Below, piece after piece: positions 26,666 to 49,206 of a DNA stretch of 64,000 nucleotides (position 1 is its first letter; the number at the start of each line of letters is the position of its first letter). The notes under the pieces were generated by a model that saw only the letters and a program-made list of their open reading frames with translations, did no database searches and was not told the DNA's origin. The position numbers and the translations under genes are program-made. This DNA is from Candidatus Wolfebacteria bacterium RIFOXYB1_FULL_54_12 (GTDB lineage: Bacteria > Patescibacteriota > Minisyncoccia > UBA6257 > UBA9933), in NCBI GenBank assembly GCA_001793895.1, contig MGIT01000001.1, positions 106,508 to 170,507 on the forward strand. Direction: 5' to 3'.

Positions 26666-27760
26666 TCAACGCATAACCCCACCTCCGATGACAACTCCAT
26701 CGGCATCGTAAAATACGGCAGATTGTCCCACGGCAACAAACCGTTGCGGTTCATCGAATTGCAACCGATAGGCCTCACCATCGGCGACCAATGTCGCCGC
26801 AAACAACGGCTGGCGATAGCGGATGCGCACCATGACCGGAATGGACTTCGGGGGGGCTATGGCGCACATGCCCATGAAATTAAGTTCAACAAGGCCAATA
26901 TCCGCACATGCCTGCTCAAGCAAATGATCATCATGCGAAACCGTGATGACATTGCTTGCGACATCTTTTTTGACCACAAAATACGCCGGTCCGCCCCCGA
27001 CATGCAATCCGTGCCGTTGCCCGATGGTATAAAACCACACACCCTCGTGCTCGCCCACCTTCACTCCGTCGACGGTAACAATGTCGCCCTTCCGTTTCGG
27101 CAGATACTGTTCCAAAAATTCACGCAACGATATCTTCCCCAAAAAACAAATACCTTGGGAATCTTTTTTCTGCGCCGTCGGAAGTCCCGCGGCCGCCGCA
27201 ATCTCCCTGATCTTCGGCTTTTCATAGGCACCGATCGGAAACAAACAATGCCGCAGTTGCTCCTGCGTAAGCGTCCACAAAAAATAACTCTGATCTTTAT
27301 TCCCATCAATCCCTTTCTGTAATGAGTAAGTAGTTTCCTGTTTTTTGTTATCGGTTATAGGTTGTAGGTTATAGGTTGCGCTTCGCGCATAATGCCCCGT
27401 CGCCACATAATCAGCCCCCAACGCAAGCGCCTTTTGCAAAAACACGCCAAACTTGATTTCCTTGTTGCACATCACATCCGGGTTCGGGGTAATGCCGTTG
27501 CGATACCCGTTGACCAAATATTCCACCACGAATTGTTTGTATTCTTCTTCAAGATCGATGACATAAAACGGGATGCCCAAATGTTCGGCAACGCGCCGCG
27601 CATCTTCCGCTTCGCGGTCTTGGCATCCGTCCATGTTATATCCTTTAATGAACGCGCCGATCACATCATAAGTCCCCTGCTCGCGCAACAAAAAAGCGGC
27701 GACACTCGAATCGACGCCGCCCGACATCATGACAAATACTTTTGGCTTTAAACCATTCAT
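26666..27760 (-). CDS. mnmA: tRNA-specific 2-thiouridylase MnmA, with an in-frame tandem-repeat insertion
   Basis: PP-loop SGGVDSS. ATGHYAR. KDQSYFLW. An inserted ATYNLQPITDNKKQ segment is encoded by the (GGTTAT)-type repeat at 27346-27379. Confidence 0.85.
   Translation of the reverse strand: MNGLKPKVFVMMSGGVDSSVAAFLLREQGTYDVIGAFIKGYNMDGCQDREAEDARRVAEHLGIPFYVIDLEEEYKQFVVEYLVNGYRNGITPNPDVMCNKEIKFGVFLQKALALGADYVATGHYARSATYNLQPITDNKKQETTYSLQKGIDGNKDQSYFLWTLTQEQLRHCLFPIGAYEKPKIREIAAAAGLPTAQKKDSQGICFLGKISLREFLEQYLPKRKGDIVTVDGVKVGEHEGVWFYTIGQRHGLHVGGGPAYFVVKKDVASNVITVSHDDHLLEQACADIGLVELNFMGMCAIAPPKSIPVMVRIRYRQPLFAATLVADGEAYRLQFDEPQRFVAVGQSAVFYDADGVVIGGGVMR
27346..27379. repeat. (GGTTAT/GGTTGT)n-type tandem repeat inside the mnmA coding sequence
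   Basis: Sequence ttgttatcggttataggttgtaggttataggttgcg. Confidence 0.8.
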
Positions 27761-28439: not shown

Positions 28440-29009
28440 TTACGCTTTTTCCACGCGCTCGGCGTACTCGCCAGTCTGCGTATTTACACGAATGATGTCG
28501 TTTTCGTTGATGAACATGGGTACATTCACCTTTGCGCCTGATTCAAGGACCACGACCTTAGTGCCGCCTTGTGCGGTATTGCCCTTGATGGCCGGAGGAG
28601 CTTCCGCAACCCGGTATTCCATTTTGACCGGCAACCGCACGGCGAATATCTTTTCGTTAAAAATAAGGGCGACCACTTCCATATCCGCCTTTAGAAAATC
28701 TTTTTGATCGCCGACAGTTTCTTCGGTCAAGCTGAACCGCTTGCCCGGATTTGCCGATTCGCAAAACCAAAACTCGCCTTTACTTGCATACAGATATTTC
28801 GATTTCAATTCTTCCACTTCGGCTTCTTCAAATTCGTCGGCCGGCTTAAAGTTGCGCGACAGCACCTGGCCGGTGCGCAGATTCTTCAATTTCGTCTGCA
28901 CGGAAGAACCTCCCCGTCCGACGTGCTGATGCGATATCTCGATCACGGTGAACGGATCTCCGTCCATAATGATAGAACTTCCTTTTTCCAAGTCGTTGAT
29001 GTCAAGCAT
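28440..29009 (-). CDS. efp: Elongation factor P
   Basis: 189 aa. KOW-like N-terminus and OB domains. Canonical EF-P sequence throughout (GKGGSSVQTKLKNLRTGQV). Confidence 0.9.
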   Translation of the reverse strand: MLDINDLEKGSSIIMDGDPFTVIEISHQHVGRGGSSVQTKLKNLRTGQVLSRNFKPADEFEEAEVEELKSKYLYASKGEFWFCESANPGKRFSLTEETVGDQKDFLKADMEVVALIFNEKIFAVRLPVKMEYRVAEAPPAIKGNTAQGGTKVVVLESGAKVNVPMFINENDIIRVNTQTGEYAERVEKA

Positions 29010-29019
29010 GTATTGTTTA

Positions 29020-29095
29020 TAATCTCTGTCATTCCCGCGGAGGCGGGAATCTATTTAATACTGGATTCCCGCCTCCGCGGGAATGACAACCTTTC
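29020..29095. repeat. Palindromic hairpin repeat pair, identical to 15468-15530
   Basis: Sequence gtcattcccgcggaggcgggaatctatttaatactggattcccgcctccgcgggaatgac. Confidence 0.85.
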
Positions 29096-29106
29096 TGATT
29101 CACTTA

Positions 29107-30858
29107 TTACAAATCCCCCTTCTCGCTCTTGTGTGGTTGCTTTGGTCGTTCTTCGGGGGTAGCTTCTTTTCTTTTTTGTAATGATTCTTCGATTGCCTTT
29201 TTCAGGTCATCAATATTGACCGCCTTTTTCTCGAACACATGTTTTGGCCTATCCTGCGGCATACTGCGAAGTCTATCGTCCATCGCTGGGCGATGCGGCA
29301 CAGGGCTGGCGCCACGATCTCCGCTAAATGGCCGCACGCTCGTCGGCCTATCGGTCAACGGCCCGTCCTGGGATGCCCGCGCAAACGACGGTCTGTCCTG
29401 CCTGCCCGCCGTAGTGTTAGCGGAGGAGGAATCCGCCGGCTGGCGGACGAAGGGTTTACGCTCGAAAGAAGGCTTCGGCGCTTGCGCACGAGGGGTTAGA
29501 GTCGAGCTCAACGACCGCTCGTCACGGCGCATAACCTTATCTGCCATGGATGTCTTACCCGACCCCATATATTCCTTGGCGATCATTTCATCCACCAACG
29601 CCTTAGGCATGGAATAATTTCTGCGGGAGTTTTCAATAATGACATCCTCGTAATTCGGCTGCGGGATTGGATACGGCGGCAAGGTCTCTGCCGAAAATGG
29701 TCTCGATGCCTGGCCGTCAACCAACAATTTAAGGTAAATATGCCGGTTTGACAAGCCGATCATATCTTGCGGCGTAAACTCGGGTTCGAATTCCTTTTCA
29801 AAAAATACGGCGTCGATGGCGCCAACGCGAAACATAGCCAAGGTGCCAATGTTGCCGACGATTGCCTCTGCAAGCCCTTCTTCTTTTTTAAGCTGATCGA
29901 CATACTGGTGGGCCAGCGTCAAGCCAAGTCCGTATTTGCGCGCCTCGGCGAAGATCTTCGTAAATGAACCGGTAGAAAAGTTTTGAAACTCGTCGATGTA
30001 CAAAAAGAACGGCCTGCGTTCGCTCTCGGGAATATCGATGCGGCTCATGGCGGCAAGCTGGATTTTGGTAATGATCATGGCGCCGAGCAATGCGGAATTG
30101 TCTTCGCCGAGACGGCCCTGCGAAAGATTGCAGATCAATATCTTGCCTTCATCCATTGCCTTGCGCATGTCGATGGTCGACTTCGGCTGGCCGATGATGT
30201 TACGGATGACCGGATTGGAACTGAACTGCCCTACCTTGTTCTGCAACGGTGCAATGGCCTCGGTCATGAACTTGTCGGTATATTTTGCAAATTCGTTTTC
30301 CCAGAACGACTTAATGACCGGGTCCTTTAAATTGGAAACGACCTTCAGGCGGTACTCTTTCTCCGCAAGCATGCGCATAATACTCAGTAAGGTCGTTCCC
30401 GGATATTCCAAAAGCGCCAACAGGGTATTGTTCAAAATATATTCCATGCGCGCAGACCATGCGTCCACCCAGATTTTTTGAAACACACCCATCACCGCCG
30501 ACGCGACAAGGTGCGCATGTTCGTCACCGACGCGTTCAAGCGGATTAAATCCGACCGGATTTTCGATATCGGCCGGATTGACATAAATGACATCCTTGAT
30601 GCGGTCTTCTGGCACATGCTTAAGCAACTCTTCGACGAATTCGCCATGCGGGTCGAGCACGGCAACACCAAATCCGTTCTTGATGTCGTTGATCATCAAG
30701 TTTTTCATCATGGTGGTCTTACCCGTGCCGCTCTTCCCGACGATGTACATATGCCGCAGGCGGTCGTTCATTTTGATGCCAAAATTAACGCTTTGATTGC
30801 GAAAATTCGTCTTTGCAAAAATTGAAATTTCTTTGTTGCTCATAGGGCTATTTGTCAT
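29107..30858 (-). CDS. P-loop ATPase of the TraD/VirD4/HerA (type IV coupling protein-like / DUF87) type, with a long disordered C-terminal tail
   Basis: Walker A (IVGKSGTGKTT) followed by VLDPHGE. Walker B (FFLYIDEFQNF). GLTLAHQ. The last 190 aa are low-complexity P/S/R/D-rich. Confidence 0.5.
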   Translation of the reverse strand: MTNSPMSNKEISIFAKTNFRNQSVNFGIKMNDRLRHMYIVGKSGTGKTTMMKNLMINDIKNGFGVAVLDPHGEFVEELLKHVPEDRIKDVIYVNPADIENPVGFNPLERVGDEHAHLVASAVMGVFQKIWVDAWSARMEYILNNTLLALLEYPGTTLLSIMRMLAEKEYRLKVVSNLKDPVIKSFWENEFAKYTDKFMTEAIAPLQNKVGQFSSNPVIRNIIGQPKSTIDMRKAMDEGKILICNLSQGRLGEDNSALLGAMIITKIQLAAMSRIDIPESERRPFFLYIDEFQNFSTGSFTKIFAEARKYGLGLTLAHQYVDQLKKEEGLAEAIVGNIGTLAMFRVGAIDAVFFEKEFEPEFTPQDMIGLSNRHIYLKLLVDGQASRPFSAETLPPYPIPQPNYEDVIIENSRRNYSMPKALVDEMIAKEYMGSGKTSMADKVMRRDERSLSSTLTPRAQAPKPSFERKPFVRQPADSSSANTTAGRQDRPSFARASQDGPLTDRPTSVRPFSGDRGASPVPHRPAMDDRLRSMPQDRPKHVFEKKAVNIDDLKKAIEESLQKRKEATPEERPKQPHKSEKGDL

Positions 30859-31029: not shown

Positions 31030-31117
31030 TTCCGTTATCCGTTATCGGTCATCCGTTTTCGTTTTCGGTTATAGGTTATTAGTTGTAGGTTTTAGGTTAT
31101 TGGTTATCAGTCATTGG
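31030..31117. repeat. Tandem (CCGTTAT)/(GGTTAT)n repeat array abutting the stop codon of 31118..32461
   Basis: Sequence ccgttatccgttatcggtcatccgttttcgttttcggttataggttattagttgtaggttttaggttattggttatcagtcattggttattc. Confidence 0.8.
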
Positions 31118-32461
31118 TTATTCTATCGGCAAATTCTCCGGAGGCTCGCCTTTCTTTGCCTCGATACGGCGCATACTCGGCGCGGTAACCAACGATGACG
31201 GAACATGGTAAAGCGTAGCCAACTCTTCTATGGAAAAGACGGGAGCCTTCTTTATCATGATCCGCTGGCGGTATGCAAAGAACATTGCCCTCTTTTTCAA
31301 AAATTCCTGATGCTTTTTCCACGCCGGAAACAGCCATGCCTTGAAACCTTTCGGCGGGTTTACCGACGTATCCCTGTTTGGCTTGAACGAATTGATATGC
31401 TGGGAACCGAATTGCTTGAATGAGCCGATGATCCCCCCTATATAGGACTTATGAAACGTTTCCTGCCGATCGATAAACACTGCACGCACGCTCACTTCAT
31501 AGCACAGTTTGGATATTTTTCCTTCAATGCCTTCAAGTACTTCCTTTTCAGAAAAGCTCAAAGACGCAATCGTCTTGGGTGGAGCGTCGGATTTTTTCGG
31601 CGGCTCGGGCCATTCCGGAGTGCTTATGAATACAAGAAAAAAATTCTTGATCCACATGACAAGATGATCAAATATGCTCAATTTAGGAGCGACCTTCACC
31701 TCACGGCCTAACATTTTATCGACGATCGCCTGTCCCTTCTTTTTGTAGTCGCTCGTTTTTTCGCCGGTCGGCTTGGATATATATTGCACGAAGATCATTT
31801 CATTCTCGCGGAGCTTCGACATGGTTTCCAAAATGACCGTAAGCGGATCAAGTCGTTGCTCTTCCTCTTTCTCTTCAAAATAGGCGTATGTCTTAATCGG
31901 ATATGCGCTGTCTTTGTCGAGAACCATATCGACGCCCCATACATCATAAACATCGTTGGGCAACATCATCGGCAAGAAGCTGAGATAGTCTTCGACAAGG
32001 GCTATTTCCGCGGCGGGATATTGCGCAAACAATGCGGACTCCACCAAATTGCGGTGCTCGGCAGGTACGCGCACATAAAAATATACACCGCCGCTTCGCC
32101 CGACCATTTCAAACGAAAGGGCGTTTTGAACCTTCCCTTTGATATTTTCATCCCACCATTTGATCTCGCCGGCATAGGTGCCATGTACCGTGGCAAACAC
32201 CTGTTCCATGGATTTCGGACTGCGCAAATTTTCCTTGGGGATGCGCAATTCAAGCACGACCCACTTTTGCGCCTTCTTTGCCGCTTTTTTGTTCGAGTCG
32301 ATGTACAGGTCCCAAAGATAGAACGCCAAAACAACCGGAACGACGGCCCACCATACGTACGAAAAGACCTCGCCAATGCTTTGCGCAATGCCAAGGATGA
32401 TATTCTGCACGACCGGTGTGATCGAAAAATAGTCCAGTAGAAAGTCTGAAATGTTTGCCAT
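31118..32461 (-). CDS. Hypothetical membrane protein (N-terminal TM pair plus a large soluble domain), co-directional and adjacent to the TraD/VirD4-like ATPase
   Basis: 447 aa. TM region VVQNIILGIAQSIGEVFSYVWWAVVPVVLAFYLW. No recognisable motifs. Confidence 0.4.
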   Translation of the reverse strand: MANISDFLLDYFSITPVVQNIILGIAQSIGEVFSYVWWAVVPVVLAFYLWDLYIDSNKKAAKKAQKWVVLELRIPKENLRSPKSMEQVFATVHGTYAGEIKWWDENIKGKVQNALSFEMVGRSGGVYFYVRVPAEHRNLVESALFAQYPAAEIALVEDYLSFLPMMLPNDVYDVWGVDMVLDKDSAYPIKTYAYFEEKEEEQRLDPLTVILETMSKLRENEMIFVQYISKPTGEKTSDYKKKGQAIVDKMLGREVKVAPKLSIFDHLVMWIKNFFLVFISTPEWPEPPKKSDAPPKTIASLSFSEKEVLEGIEGKISKLCYEVSVRAVFIDRQETFHKSYIGGIIGSFKQFGSQHINSFKPNRDTSVNPPKGFKAWLFPAWKKHQEFLKKRAMFFAYRQRIMIKKAPVFSIEELATLYHVPSSLVTAPSMRRIEAKKGEPPENLPIE

Positions 32462-32519
32462 GTATCTCTTTTAGTATATCGCAAAATGGTCCAACAAAAA
32501 AGAGACACTCGTCTCTTTT

Positions 32520-32578
32520 TTGCATTCCGTTATCCGTTATCCGTTTTCGGTTATTGGTTATTGGTTATCCGTTATTTA
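32520..32578. repeat. Tandem (CCGTTAT)/(GGTTAT)n repeat array abutting the stop codon of 32576..33619
   Basis: Sequence ccgttatccgttatccgttttcggttattggttattggttatccgttatttacg. Confidence 0.8.
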
Positions 32579-33619
32579 CGCAACATGATATGTTCCGTTG
32601 TCCAATCGTTTGAAATATTTTTTGTTCTGCAAGTTAAGCAGAATGGTGTTTTCCTTCAAGAATCGCTGAGAGGAAACCAACTGCACGACCTCATGCTGGG
32701 CAAGCGGGCCATTGTCAACAAGCACCTGCTTGATGACGTCCTTTGCCGTACCCGGGAAAAATCCATGCTCGGTCAAACCATACATACCGCGACCTACAAG
32801 GACAAATCGTCCATCCTTGATCAATTCATTATGGATCGTCTGTGCATACACCGGCTTTTTATCGAACCCGACCGAATTGATCGTAGTGGCGATATCGCGG
32901 AAGTGCATCGGCTTGCCATGCTTGCGCAAGATAAGATATGCCTTTGCGCGCGCGGTCTTCGGCGTGATCTCTTCCCAATGGGAAAGACCAAAGTCGGAAT
33001 ACGGATTCACGGAAAACTGTTTCGAGATGCCGAGGTAGTTCATGCCGACGGCGCGGTCGACGTTCGAAGCGGTCGCAACCTGCTTGAAGTGCGGATCGAA
33101 TTGACCCTTGAAGACTATTTCTTCTTTCTTGCCGCCAAAGAACTTGACCGCCTTTTCAATGAAAGTCTCTGCCTTTTTGACGACAGCCTTGTCCGAAGCC
33201 CAAAACCCATAGGAATGATCGCTTTCAGCATGGTACATCGGCTCGCCGGCAATGCGGAAAAGGAAGCGGAACTGATACTTGTTCACGGTCGCATCTTTCA
33301 ACACCGTGCGCATGTCTTCGACAAAATCATCTTCCTTGCGAACGCCGCCCAAGGCAACGAGTTGCTCCTTGGCGATTTGCACCAGGCGATCGCCGCCTGC
33401 ATCGCTAAAACGTTCCCGCGCCAAACGAAGCCCTTCTGCCTCTATCTGGCGCACGCGCTCACGGGTAATGCCGTTGCGTTCGCCGAGTTCCTGCAGGGTC
33501 TTTTCCTGTCCATCGCGAAGTCCAAAACGTTCCTCGACTATTTCTCGCTGTCGAGCGGACAATGCGTGCGTTACCTGTTCGATGATATTGCCTGTGTTCT
33601 TCATAAGAGTTGAATCCAA
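32576..33619 (-). CDS. Sigma-70 region-4-like HTH domain protein fused to a C-terminal domain of unknown function
   Basis: The N-terminus LSARQREIVEERFGL...KTLQELGERNGITRERVRQIEAEGLRLAR is a region-4 HTH. The remaining about 270 aa are unassigned (possible winged-helix/HARE-HTH-like end). Confidence 0.45.
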   Translation of the reverse strand: MDSTLMKNTGNIIEQVTHALSARQREIVEERFGLRDGQEKTLQELGERNGITRERVRQIEAEGLRLARERFSDAGGDRLVQIAKEQLVALGGVRKEDDFVEDMRTVLKDATVNKYQFRFLFRIAGEPMYHAESDHSYGFWASDKAVVKKAETFIEKAVKFFGGKKEEIVFKGQFDPHFKQVATASNVDRAVGMNYLGISKQFSVNPYSDFGLSHWEEITPKTARAKAYLILRKHGKPMHFRDIATTINSVGFDKKPVYAQTIHNELIKDGRFVLVGRGMYGLTEHGFFPGTAKDVIKQVLVDNGPLAQHEVVQLVSSQRFLKENTILLNLQNKKYFKRLDNGTYHVA

Positions 33620-37865: not shown

Positions 37866-38825
37866 TTACTTAATACCCCTCTTAAGCACTGTTGTCAATT
37901 TTTTCAATTGCGCATCATAGGTGGCCTTGTCGCGCGCTTCCACATTTAACCGAACTAACGATTCGGTATTGGAAAGCCGCACGTTGAACCACCAATCGGG
38001 ATCGGCAAAGTCCATGGCAATGCCATCGATCTTCGATATAGCCTTTGCGTCTTTTTTATATGTCCGTTCTATGTGCGCAAACAATCCGGCGGGCGCAATG
38101 GAAGACGAAACAGGGACATTGATCTCCGGCGACCGATACGTTTCCGGCAAGAGGTCTACGAATTCCGACAGCGCATACGGCAATCGCGCAAGCGCGTTCA
38201 GCACCGCGACGGCCGCCATGATGCCCGAATCGCAATAAAAAAAGTTTTTAAAATAATAGTGCCCCGATCGCTCGCACCCGAATTCGGCGCCATTTTTCCG
38301 CATGGCGTGTTTCATGGCGTAATGCCCTGTCTTGCCCGCAATGCGTTTTGCGCCAAGCAGCGACTCGTCCCGAGTGAAATCGAGGGATTGCCGACGCACA
38401 AGCCATCCGTCTTTTGCATCGGTCACAAATCGATTCGGACGCAAGGACCACAGCAACAGATACGCCACGACATCCGGGTCCACAAAACGACCCTTGTCGT
38501 CGACGAAGAAAACACGGTCTCCATCCGCATCAAAGATGACACCTATATCGGCACCATTGGAAACAACGCTCTTTTGTAACGCGCGCAACGAACCGGCATG
38601 CAACGGATCCGGCGCATGATTCGGGAAGTTCCCATCAGGCTGACCATTCAAAATAGCCCATTCCCTTTTTTCCTTTTTCCTTTTTCCTTTTTCCCTGAGT
38701 GCCTCCATGATCGGCCCTGTAGCCCCGCTGGAACAATCAAAAACAACATCAAGCGTTTTTGCATCGTCGCGCAAAAACCCGTTCAAAAACGAAACATATT
38801 CATCGACAAAGGGTGAGGTATTCAT
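37866..38825 (-). CDS. Phosphoglucomutase/phosphomannomutase family protein lacking the N-terminal catalytic domain I. Domains II-IV only, so possibly a truncated gene or pseudogene
   Basis: Metal-binding loop FDADGDRVFFVDD. Sugar-binding and C-terminal domains present. No TASHNP-type active-site Ser domain. No upstream ORF supplies it. An in-frame (GGAAAAA)n at 38664-38696 encodes KGKRKKEKR. Confidence 0.55.
   Translation of the reverse strand: MNTSPFVDEYVSFLNGFLRDDAKTLDVVFDCSSGATGPIMEALREKGKRKKEKREWAILNGQPDGNFPNHAPDPLHAGSLRALQKSVVSNGADIGVIFDADGDRVFFVDDKGRFVDPDVVAYLLLWSLRPNRFVTDAKDGWLVRRQSLDFTRDESLLGAKRIAGKTGHYAMKHAMRKNGAEFGCERSGHYYFKNFFYCDSGIMAAVAVLNALARLPYALSEFVDLLPETYRSPEINVPVSSSIAPAGLFAHIERTYKKDAKAISKIDGIAMDFADPDWWFNVRLSNTESLVRLNVEARDKATYDAQLKKLTTVLKRGIK
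38664..38696. repeat. (TTTTTCC)n / (GGAAAAA)n microsatellite inside a coding region
   Basis: Sequence cccttttttcctttttcctttttcctttttccc. Confidence 0.85.
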
Positions 38826-48014: not shown

Positions 48015-48050
48015 CTGTTATTAGTTATAGGTTGCTGGTTGTTAGCCTGA
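48015..48050. repeat. (GGTTAT)-type tandem repeat 3' of rplK
   Basis: Sequence cctgttattagttataggttgctggttgttagcc. Confidence 0.65.
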
Positions 48051-48087
48051 AGTCAAATAAAAAACGCCTATGGCGTTTTTTATTTGA
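48051..48087. terminator. Intrinsic terminator hairpin downstream of rplK
   Basis: Sequence gtcaaataaaaaacgcctatggcgttttttatttgac. Confidence 0.65.
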
Positions 48088-48502
48088 CTTCGATTCCCAT
48101 CGATCGGGCTGCGCCCTTGATGATCTTTGCGGCCTGCTCGACGTCTTCAGTGTTAAGATCCACCATTTTCTTTTCGGCGATCTCACGCACCTGCGCCTCG
48201 GTAACGGTTCCCACCTTGATCTTCAGCGGATTCGCCGATCCCTTGGCGACGCCTGCCGCTTTGCGCAACAGATCGGATGCCGGGGAGGTCTTCAGCTTGA
48301 AGTCGAAGGTTCGATCTTCATAGATGTTGATCTCTGCGGGAATGATGCTTCCGACCATATCTTTGGTCGCTTCGTTGAACTGCTGGCAGAACTGCGCGAT
48401 ATTCACGCCGTGCTGACCCAATGCCGGACCAATCGGAGGAGCAGGGTTTGCCGCGCCACCCGGGATCTGAAGCTTAATGATAGTTTTGATTGCTTTTGCC
48501 AT
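48080..48502 (-). CDS. rplK: 50S ribosomal protein L11
   Basis: [35 protein letters not shown] is canonical L11. Confidence 0.9.
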
Positions 48503-48609
48503 ACTGTATATGAATTATGAATACTAAATAATGGATTATGGTAAGGAATATGTCAAGAATCTCATCTGCATTCATTCATTATTCATGATTCATGCTTCTT
48601 GATTCACGC

Positions 48610-49206
48610 TTATATTTTTTGCAACTGCAACGAGTCCAACTCGACCGCAGTCTCTCGCCCGAAGATCGGCACAAGTACCTTGATCTTTGCGTGCTCCTGA
48701 TCGATATCGGATATCTTTCCTTCGTAGTCTTTGAACGGTCCGTCGGTGATCTTTACGATATCGCCAACGACATAATCCAAGGTAATTTTCTTCTCGCCAC
48801 CTTCCATGCGGGCGAGCAGAAAATCAACCTCTTCCTTCGACAACGGCGTCGGCTCGGTAGAATCCGATCCGACAAAACCGGTAACGCGCGGCGTATTGCG
48901 CACGACATACCATGAGTCTTCGCCCATGATCATGTCAACAAGCACATACCCGGGATAGATCTTTTCCTCGACTTCCTTGCGCTTTCCGTTCTTGATCTTG
49001 ATGCTCTTTTCCTTGGGAACGACGACGTTAAAGATCTTGTCATCCATTTCCAAAGAATCGACGCGCTGTTTCAAATAGCGCGCGACGGCATCTTCGTAGC
49101 CGGAATAGGTGTGCACGGCATACCAATGCCGCTCCCCTTTTTGGGAAAGTTCCTTTTTCTTCTCGGCCTTCTTTTCCGAAGTCGGTTGTGATGTTGTTTC
49201 AGTCAT
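48610..49206 (-). CDS. nusG: Transcription termination/antitermination protein NusG
   Basis: NGN domain (WYAVHTYSGYE) and C-terminal KOW (GDIVKITDGPFKDYEGKI). Confidence 0.9.
   Translation of the reverse strand: MTETTSQPTSEKKAEKKKELSQKGERHWYAVHTYSGYEDAVARYLKQRVDSLEMDDKIFNVVVPKEKSIKIKNGKRKEVEEKIYPGYVLVDMIMGEDSWYVVRNTPRVTGFVGSDSTEPTPLSKEEVDFLLARMEGGEKKITLDYVVGDIVKITDGPFKDYEGKISDIDQEHAKIKVLVPIFGRETAVELDSLQLQKI

Follow-up and report, generated by a model that had tools for sequence, protein, structure and literature searches.

A translated heptanucleotide repeat at a predicted hairpin tip of MnmA in Candidatus Wolfebacteria and the excess of such arrays in mnmA across Paceibacteria

The stretch analyzed here, 64,000 nucleotides of contig MGIT01000001.1 from Candidatus Wolfebacteria bacterium RIFOXYB1_FULL_54_12 (hereafter the window), carries on its minus strand an mnmA gene in the middle of which a short tandem repeat array is translated. 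The product of the open reading frame (ORF) matches PF03054, PF20259, and PF20258 (E values of 6e-72, 1e-23, and 1e-11), aligns end to end with the MnmA structures 2hma and 2der (E values of 2e-89 and 3e-83), and is 100% identical to NCBI OGM93172.1 (Cand. Wolfebacteria). Both the PP-loop SGGVDSS (residues 13-19) and the cysteines C98 and C205 are intact and, as a comparison with 29 orthologs revealed, invariant. By its PP-loop, its two conserved cysteines, and its three-domain architecture, the ORF is assigned as MnmA, with a predicted enzyme activity. In the PDB alignment the protein exceeds Streptococcus pneumoniae MnmA by 10 aa, and it exceeds the short orthologs P0004, P0013, and P0017 by 12 aa. 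A first-pass annotation made from the sequence had stated that the reading frame and the catalytic motifs are undisturbed and that usual MnmA proteins are shorter at the repeat, and both statements hold.

The same annotation had described the repeat as a hexamer array translated in frame between the ATGHYAR and KDQSYFLW blocks. The tract was found where it had been placed, at 27346-27379, and its in-frame translation between the two blocks was seen in the intact 364-aa ORF, but its unit is not a hexamer. Tandem Repeats Finder (TRF) reported a period of 7 at 27347-27377, with 4.4 copies, 87% matches, and a score of 48, and the unit reads GGTTATN on the plus strand and ATAACCN on the sense strand. 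The observation as a whole is partly confirmed, being real once the unit length is corrected. Translation of the core array yields A128-TYNLQPITDN-K139. Two further, degenerate units may extend the array, and in an AACNNNN register AAC opens seven units in a row, so that the whole tract in mnmA is a tandem array of 35-49 nt (Table 1).

The consensus unit ATAACCN contains TAA, and since each 7-nt step shifts the frame, a run of three units brings TAA into every frame once. The TAA triplets of units 2, 4, and 5 of the mnmA array fall in frames +2, +1, and +2, and the one unit whose consensus TAA would lie in frame 0 reads CAA. This single T-to-C change (TAA to CAA) keeps the mnmA ORF open, and it is the one stop-removing change by which a stop-containing array became readable in the middle of an enzyme. 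When we scanned metagenomes with ATAACCNATAACCNATAAC, not one of the 125 matches fell within an ORF of 150 aa or more read in the sense direction, and 13 fell within antisense ORFs; the lack of sense matches is uninformative by construction, because three perfect units hold TAA in every frame. Five sequences from independent assemblies (NCBI OGM93172.1 and OGM96087.1, ENA, JGI, and SRC) have exactly the same loop peptide, which argues against a misassembly, and neither a copy-number or length polymorphism nor a frameshifted allele was detected among these five assemblies.

An AlphaFold2 model of MnmA, computed with the ortholog alignment, reached a mean predicted local distance difference test score (pLDDT) of 88.6 and a predicted template modeling score of 0.85. 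The tract appears in it as a hairpin with strands at residues 125-132 and 142-149, and the tip of this hairpin, residues 131-140, has an average pLDDT of 61, the lowest of the protein. As modeled, the hairpin gains about 12 residues from the array at its low-confidence tip, with the catalytic motifs untouched.

The unit is not confined to mnmA. Allowing at most one mismatch, GGTTATAGGTT has 11 matches in the window versus 0.5 expected. A scan of the window for arrays of at least four units with at least 85% self-identity, covering periods 5-11, returned six regions of period 7 and none of periods 5, 6, or 8-11, and 20 shuffles returned none at all. The mnmA array and four intergenic arrays have the unit ATAACCN in common and share the same (minus) strand orientation, which bears out the earlier assignment of the tract to a tandem-repeat family of this genome; copy numbers among the window arrays range from about 4 to 13 units. 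Arrays make up nearly the whole of the tRNA-Pro/tRNA-Phe and nusG/rplK spacers and must therefore be part of the primary transcripts, and the array at 32526-32575 ends at a terminator-like hairpin and T-run (32500-32522). In unit order, the copies resemble one another no more than shuffled controls do. We also considered, and rejected, a direct origin of the mnmA array by copying of the longest array at 31031-31122: the apparent unit-order match of 32/35 has a p value of 0.11-0.16 against unit-shuffled arrays and is no better than the match between the mnmA array and that of L082, a relative described below.

Table 1. Positions of mnmA, its repeat tract, and the other heptamer arrays of the window
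Feature	Positions	Strand	Description
mnmA (tRNA 2-thiouridine(34) synthase)	26666..27760	-	Intact ORF, 364 aa; Pfam and PDB matches
Core heptamer array in mnmA	27345..27379	-	Sense units GCAACCT ATAACCT ACAACCT ATAACCG ATAACAA; encodes A128-K139 (ATYNLQPITDNK)
Two putative further degenerate units in mnmA	27331..27344	-	AAAACAG GAAACTA; read from the sequence, below the TRF threshold; part of K139-T144
CAA codon (Gln133)	27362..27364	-	In unit ACAACCT, the sole unit with the consensus TAA in frame 0
ATAACCN-family intergenic array	7990..8022	-	ATAACCA ATAACTA ATAACCT ATAACCA; fills the tRNA-Pro/tRNA-Phe spacer
Longest ATAACCN-family array	31031..31122	-	About 13 units, passing from ATAACCN to ATAACGG; reaches over the stop TAA (31118-31120) that ends ORF 31118..32461 (-)
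ATAACGG/ATAACCA array	32526..32575	-	7 units; begins directly behind the sigma-70-r4/HARE-HTH stop codon (gene 32576..33619, -)
Short degenerate ATAACCN-family array	48017..48046	-	3' of rplK (48080..48502, -) and its terminator-like hairpin
(GGAAAAA)n in-frame heptamer array	38661..38698	-	In the PGM/PMM-like gene 37866..38825 (-); peptide EKGKRKKEKRE
TGAATCA heptamer array	48569..48611	-	Fills the nusG-rplK spacer; begins 3 nt past the nusG stop

Repeats in coding sequence beyond mnmA, which the first-pass annotation had also asserted, are indeed present in the window, in the form of the heptamer array of the PGM/PMM-like gene and two in-frame peptide copies in tsaD; what did not hold is the description of the mnmA array as colonizing, if an event in this genome was meant. 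The PDB alignment of the PGM/PMM-like protein leaves a 5-aa gap in the reference at the array peptide. Its ORF (319 aa) covers PGM domains II-IV only, domain I apparently being missing. The two in-frame copies in tsaD (813..1976, minus strand) have the peptide DSRLRGNDN(AG), which looks like the translated form of another, palindromic repeat family, and the same peptide recurs in a spurious ORF (28704..29162, plus strand) beside a GGGAAT-type hairpin at 29031-29050.

Having located the array within the gene and the genome, we compared the mnmA site among relatives. Among some 5.8 billion proteins searched, the orthologs P0002-P0023 have 73-85% identity and are all metagenomic; others, less closely related, bear the label Wolfebacteria or Paceibacteria. 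Their alignment is free of gaps except in the GHYxR-YALQxG stretch, which is hypervariable in length and sequence. We read the loop DNA of six relatives (L081-L086), each on a contig of 4-16 kb. L081 (P0002, 85% identity) carries the array ATAACCG ATAACCA ACAACCA ATAACTA ATAACGG, and L082 (P0003, 80% identity) an array of the same type with an ACAACC unit at the same array position. At the same site, L083 (P0007) has four copies of ACGAAAT, L084 (P0011) 3.7 copies of ATGAGAT, and L085 (P0010) 4.3 copies of AATTTCT, while L086 (P0004) is without an array and 36 nt shorter. Orthologs sharing the extra residues on DNA of no repeat character were not found; the residues come with repeat-like DNA. 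TRF detected period-7 arrays on the L081-L086 contigs only at the mnmA site, the sole other match of period 7, 14, or 21 being a period-14 array in L084.

The window, L081, and L082 share a common unit order as well as the same TAA-to-CAA change at the same site, and the array and the stop-removing change are therefore ancestral, predating the split of these lineages, and not a recent colonization. The mnmA arrays of these three or more lineages are thus positional orthologs, inherited rather than freshly inserted, which does not support the earlier description as inserted, if an event in this genome was meant. Nor is this genome's repeat family the constant, since relatives farther away have arrays of unrelated units at exactly the same hairpin tip; what stays the same is the hairpin-tip site. 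The orthologous arrays, the absence of period-7 arrays from the shuffles, and the identity of the peptide in five assemblies together leave virtually no probability for a stretch of low complexity arisen by chance or for an artefact of assembly, a reading that had nothing but the short length of the tract on its side and is already refuted.

On a rough neighbor-joining tree computed with the loop left out, array types and short forms are scattered, which points to fast turnover, to repeated loss and gain, or to recombination. Two fragments from SRR3989339, P0126 and P0125, have the same N-terminus (METPRPK...), one with a window-type loop and the other with a P0002-type loop; P0126, which joins a window-like N-terminus to a P0002-type loop, is either a natural mnmA recombinant or a chimeric assembly. 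Upstream of mnmA, the window has efp and a gene for a 204-aa membrane protein, and L082 has in their place, directly adjoining mnmA, a tyrosine-recombinase (Phage_integrase) gene (L082 122-937).

These comparisons bear directly on the colonization favored in the first-pass annotation, that is, on a mobile or recombinationally dispersed repeat inserted in frame in the style of Rickettsia palindromic elements (RPEs). The occurrence of the ATAACCN unit at five loci in 64 kb, the scatter of array types over the ortholog tree, the hint of exchange in the metagenomic fragment P0126, and the translation of another repeat family in tsaD are all consistent with such a history. [quoted passage not shown] Moreover, an intact forward array, with TAA in three frames, would truncate any ORF it entered, in unit order, the mnmA array comes no nearer to the intergenic arrays than unit-shuffled controls do (p 0.11-0.16), and the sharing of the array with relatives leaves no recent event to explain. 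Unit families of whole genomes are weakly supported as a general rule: among 86 loci, units within a genome are barely more alike than units of different genomes, pairs with at most one mismatch accounting for 15.8% of within-genome and 10.6% of GC-matched between-genome comparisons. We therefore consider a dispersed element improbable, and the first-pass interpretation as a whole is partly supported.

To place the arrays of these close relatives in a wider frame, we surveyed 80 Paceibacteria loci with mnmA from species-representative genomes of the Genome Taxonomy Database (GTDB), each with up to 10 kb of flank per side. The TGHY and KDQ[ST]YF motifs lie in the same frame in 84 of 87 sequences, these being the 80 GTDB loci, the six close relatives, and the window. 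In the Paceibacteria loci, the GHY-KDQ loop between the motifs is 15-70 aa long, with a median of 28, and period 7 gives the top autocorrelation in many of them; 13 of the 84 orthologs have a minimal loop of 15 aa. TRF found 58 in-frame period-7 arrays in the 84 mnmA genes, with at least one array in 38 genes and an array in the GHY-KDQ loop in 30. The arrays gather at four hot spots, corresponding to window residues of about 125-150, 250-258, 295-310, and 323-333, of which the three beyond our tract are predicted by the model to be loops or hairpin turns as well. The GHY-KDQ loop also houses long non-heptamer inserts of 40-70 aa (L006 10352-10471, L034 4514-4633, and in L013, L026, L028, L033, L065, and L067); a motif common to the L006 and L034 inserts, VSGATPK, suggests that another repeat family is translated at this MnmA loop.

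The maintenance of a common frame on both sides of the loop speaks to the possibility of a contingency (phase-variation) locus, in which gain or loss of one 7-nt unit would shift the frame and switch MnmA off or on. The period lends itself to this reading, because a change by a single unit of 7 nt is a frameshift, and heptamer repeats are known to tune expression in some pathogens. Phase-variable loci are nevertheless marked by long near-perfect repeats and variant alleles, and the mnmA array is short and imperfect (4.4 copies), its loop is identical in the five assemblies, none of which has a frameshifted allele, and the two flanking motifs share a frame in nearly all sequences surveyed. Phase variation is accordingly a very improbable explanation.

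The survey further revealed that heptamer arrays are disproportionately frequent in mnmA. At a stricter cut-off (TRF score of at least 36 and at least 3 copies), array density was 0.43/kb in mnmA, 0.031/kb in other long ORFs, and 0.11/kb in intergenic DNA, and the 41 arrays observed in mnmA compare with 2.9 expected from the other ORFs (Poisson p about 1e-32). In a clustering of 1,089 long ORFs by family, the 85 mnmA genes contained 44 arrays (0.44/kb), and 21 other families of 8-32 members had 0-1 each. Across 84 related genomes, non-triplet repeats are about 14 times as frequent in mnmA as in other genes, and the under-representation of heptamers in coding sequence, which is true of average ORFs, is not seen in mnmA. 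Besides mnmA, the only family with more than one array is a GKGKTT P-loop family of about 180-200 aa, possibly CobA/BtuR-like. Its arrays lie at the same position in L008 (12082-12114, AAATTCA) and L024 (2071-2102, AAATTCG) and encode the peptides KFKIQNSKFKI and KFEIPNSKFEI.

Period 7 dominates outside mnmA as well. In related loci totaling 1.3 Mb, TRF reported it more often than any other period (182 TRF rows), and among tandem repeats within ORFs it accounts for 33 in other ORFs and 41 in mnmA, while periods 6, 9, and 12 together make up a handful. Such dominance is unusual, since repeat periods that are multiples of a triplet are expected in coding sequence. Of 32 intergenic arrays in the related loci, 13 lie from -7 to +9 nt from a stop codon. 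The flanks of genomes with mnmA arrays hold 2.8-fold more arrays (rho 0.25, p 0.02), which is consistent with a mutational propensity at the level of the lineage. In-frame arrays are A-rich in hydrophilic loops, where their peptides are rich in Lys, Asn, Gln, and Ser, and T-rich in hydrophobic segments; this tracking of protein context by array composition supports a filter at the protein level. T-rich arrays were found in signal-peptide- or transmembrane-like segments in L020 (4139-4163 and 5281-5312), L038 (3738-3759), L069 (3778-3807), and L007 (6530-6557), with peptides such as LLLTTLYLLPT, GIFYYLFF, and YFVLLFIGII.

The excess in mnmA raises the question of whether selection keeps the arrays there, either because longer loops help MnmA, for example by offering basic residues for tRNA binding in a lineage without accessory sulfur-relay proteins, or because the repeat is a cis regulator site on mRNA or DNA, as proposed for the TAACTGA repeats discussed below. 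Apart from the strength of the outlier itself, the persistence of arrays at the same four sites in orthologs of 42-85% identity, while the units change, would fit this idea, as would the basic character of the in-frame arrays (about +0.18 net charge per residue) and the uniform sense-strand reading of all ATAACCN arrays of the window, in transcribed spacers or 3' ends. On the other hand, 13 orthologs have the minimal loop, the close relatives P0004, P0013, P0014, and P0017 lack an array, the unit sequence is not conserved, so that a sequence-specific binding site is unlikely, and the RNA of the array is unstructured. Of two specific forms of the idea, autoregulation was rejected and a basic loop was not supported, as mnmA arrays match those of other genes in both respects: AAA, GAA, and CAA, the codons that the product of mnmA helps to read and with which the arrays would load its mRNA, account for 23.8% of the codons of mnmA arrays versus 24.0% for those of other ORFs, and the net charge per residue of +0.18 in mnmA arrays compares with +0.16 in other arrays, leaving no MnmA-specific basic loop. 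The window peptide ATYNLQPITDNK itself is not basic. Selection for the arrays is in our estimation unlikely.

Tandem heptamers have precedents in other phyla. The short tandemly repeated repetitive (STRR) sequences of cyanobacteria, reportedly described by Mazel et al. in 1990, are families of tandem heptamers dispersed in the genome, mostly intergenic and of unknown function. The window arrays are likewise dispersed tandem heptamer families found mostly between genes, although the phylum and the units differ, and STRR sequences are not known to occupy one conserved enzyme recurrently in frame. Another parallel is provided by TAACTGA, a heptamer that is directly repeated in Beggiatoaceae, Cyanobacteria, and Bacteroidetes (MacGregor, 2015, PMC4679880). 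Like the window arrays, these consist of tandem 7-nt units (2-6 or more copies of TAACTGA) at many loci (PMC4679880). The unit shares TAAC..A with the TAACCNA register of the window; in both systems, the forward orientation yields stop codons in all three frames, the arrays often run across the stop of the gene upstream or occupy a short spacer, also in ribosomal-protein operons, and no RNA structure is predicted. In Beggiatoa, the unit is strict, forward repeats reach at most 18 nt into an ORF, cases within ORFs are reverse-oriented or peripheral, and a regulator site upstream of start codons has been proposed (PMC4679880). By contrast, the mnmA array is forward-oriented in the middle of a conserved enzyme, which the TAA-to-CAA change enables, and the units here are degenerate and differ between relatives.

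Two other comparisons help to delimit the tract. Heptameric GGGNATC and GGGGAYT repeats occur in Xanthomonas and Nostoc (Rehm et al., 2015, PMC4692102), and in a passage of that paper polymerase slippage is cited as having been proposed for the excess of heptamers in bacteria; unlike these repeats, the window arrays are A/C-rich, are without G-tracts, and are strongly over-represented in one gene. RPEs and other in-frame MITEs are translated within conserved genes at positions compatible with the fold and without inactivating the gene (reviewed in PMC10969869). The mnmA array resembles them in outcome only, in that a repeat is translated and the gene kept, since RPEs are palindromes of roughly 100-150 bp with a conserved sequence, whereas the mnmA tract is a much shorter tandem array without inverted repeats or a fold. 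Taken together, the tract has the features of the heptanucleotide families for which it was tested, that is, a 7-nt period, one unit dispersed in the genome, location at gene 3' ends including overlap with the stop, and stops in three frames; it departs from the known families in the excess in one conserved gene and in the forward orientation in mid-ORF. A full-text literature search turned up no paper in which repeats of the heptamer or heptanucleotide kind are connected with Patescibacteria, the candidate phyla radiation (CPR), or Parcubacteria.

Given these likenesses, we lean toward the view that the tract is a slippage-type heptanucleotide repeat of the STRR or TAACTGA kind, tolerated at a permissive loop of MnmA. 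The most fitting description is that of a heptanucleotide repeat which was inherited and is translated at the permissive tip of a surface beta-hairpin, and of one instance of a clade-wide habit of mnmA. Under this scheme, arrays would grow and turn over by replication slippage, with a 7-nt step strongly favored in these genomes. Within genes, the arrays to survive would be those whose length gain is a multiple of three, which contain no in-frame stop, and which sit in a loop tolerant of extra residues, so that selection on the protein would filter what remains. We infer that the mnmA tract is a tolerated passenger without a function of its own.

Several observations weigh against a slippage-derived passenger. 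A neutral model does not account for mnmA as an outlier, its 44 arrays in 85 genes standing against 0-1 per other family and an intergenic density of 0.11/kb. Slippage in situ, taken alone, leaves unaccounted for the match between the mnmA unit and the intergenic unit of the genome when close relatives have other units at this site. Simple unit-wise slippage in a coding frame would produce copy numbers in whole multiples of three, and the typical values of about 4.4-4.9 are not such multiples; slippage itself was not seen, with no length variation among the five assemblies. The enrichment in mnmA keeps open the selective reading, unlikely as it is, and the recombinational one, doubtful as that appears. 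Quite unlikely, too, is a further proposal, namely that Paceibacteria have an active, strongly 7-nt-biased process that generates or maintains repeats, whose products are retained preferentially at the four MnmA hairpin tips, through inter-lineage recombination in the gene or through long loops selected without regard to their sequence. If it were true, the mnmA arrays would be a clade-wide feature of the gene and not incidental junk, and heptamer slippage would regularly supply these reduced genomes with new sequence for protein loops.

Heptamer repeats have been known for decades in cyanobacteria, Xanthomonas, and Beggiatoaceae, where they are described as avoiding coding sequence, and they are found here in the CPR. 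For annotation, the arrays account for odd low-complexity peptides such as IQNSKFKIQN, ISNFKFQISN, and ITDNQQPIT and for the large length variation of CPR MnmA. While the single locus is a modest curiosity, the clade-wide mnmA pattern is the part of greater weight, offering a countable system for how 7-nt repeats arise and persist and for how slippage may feed new loops into the proteins of streamlined genomes.

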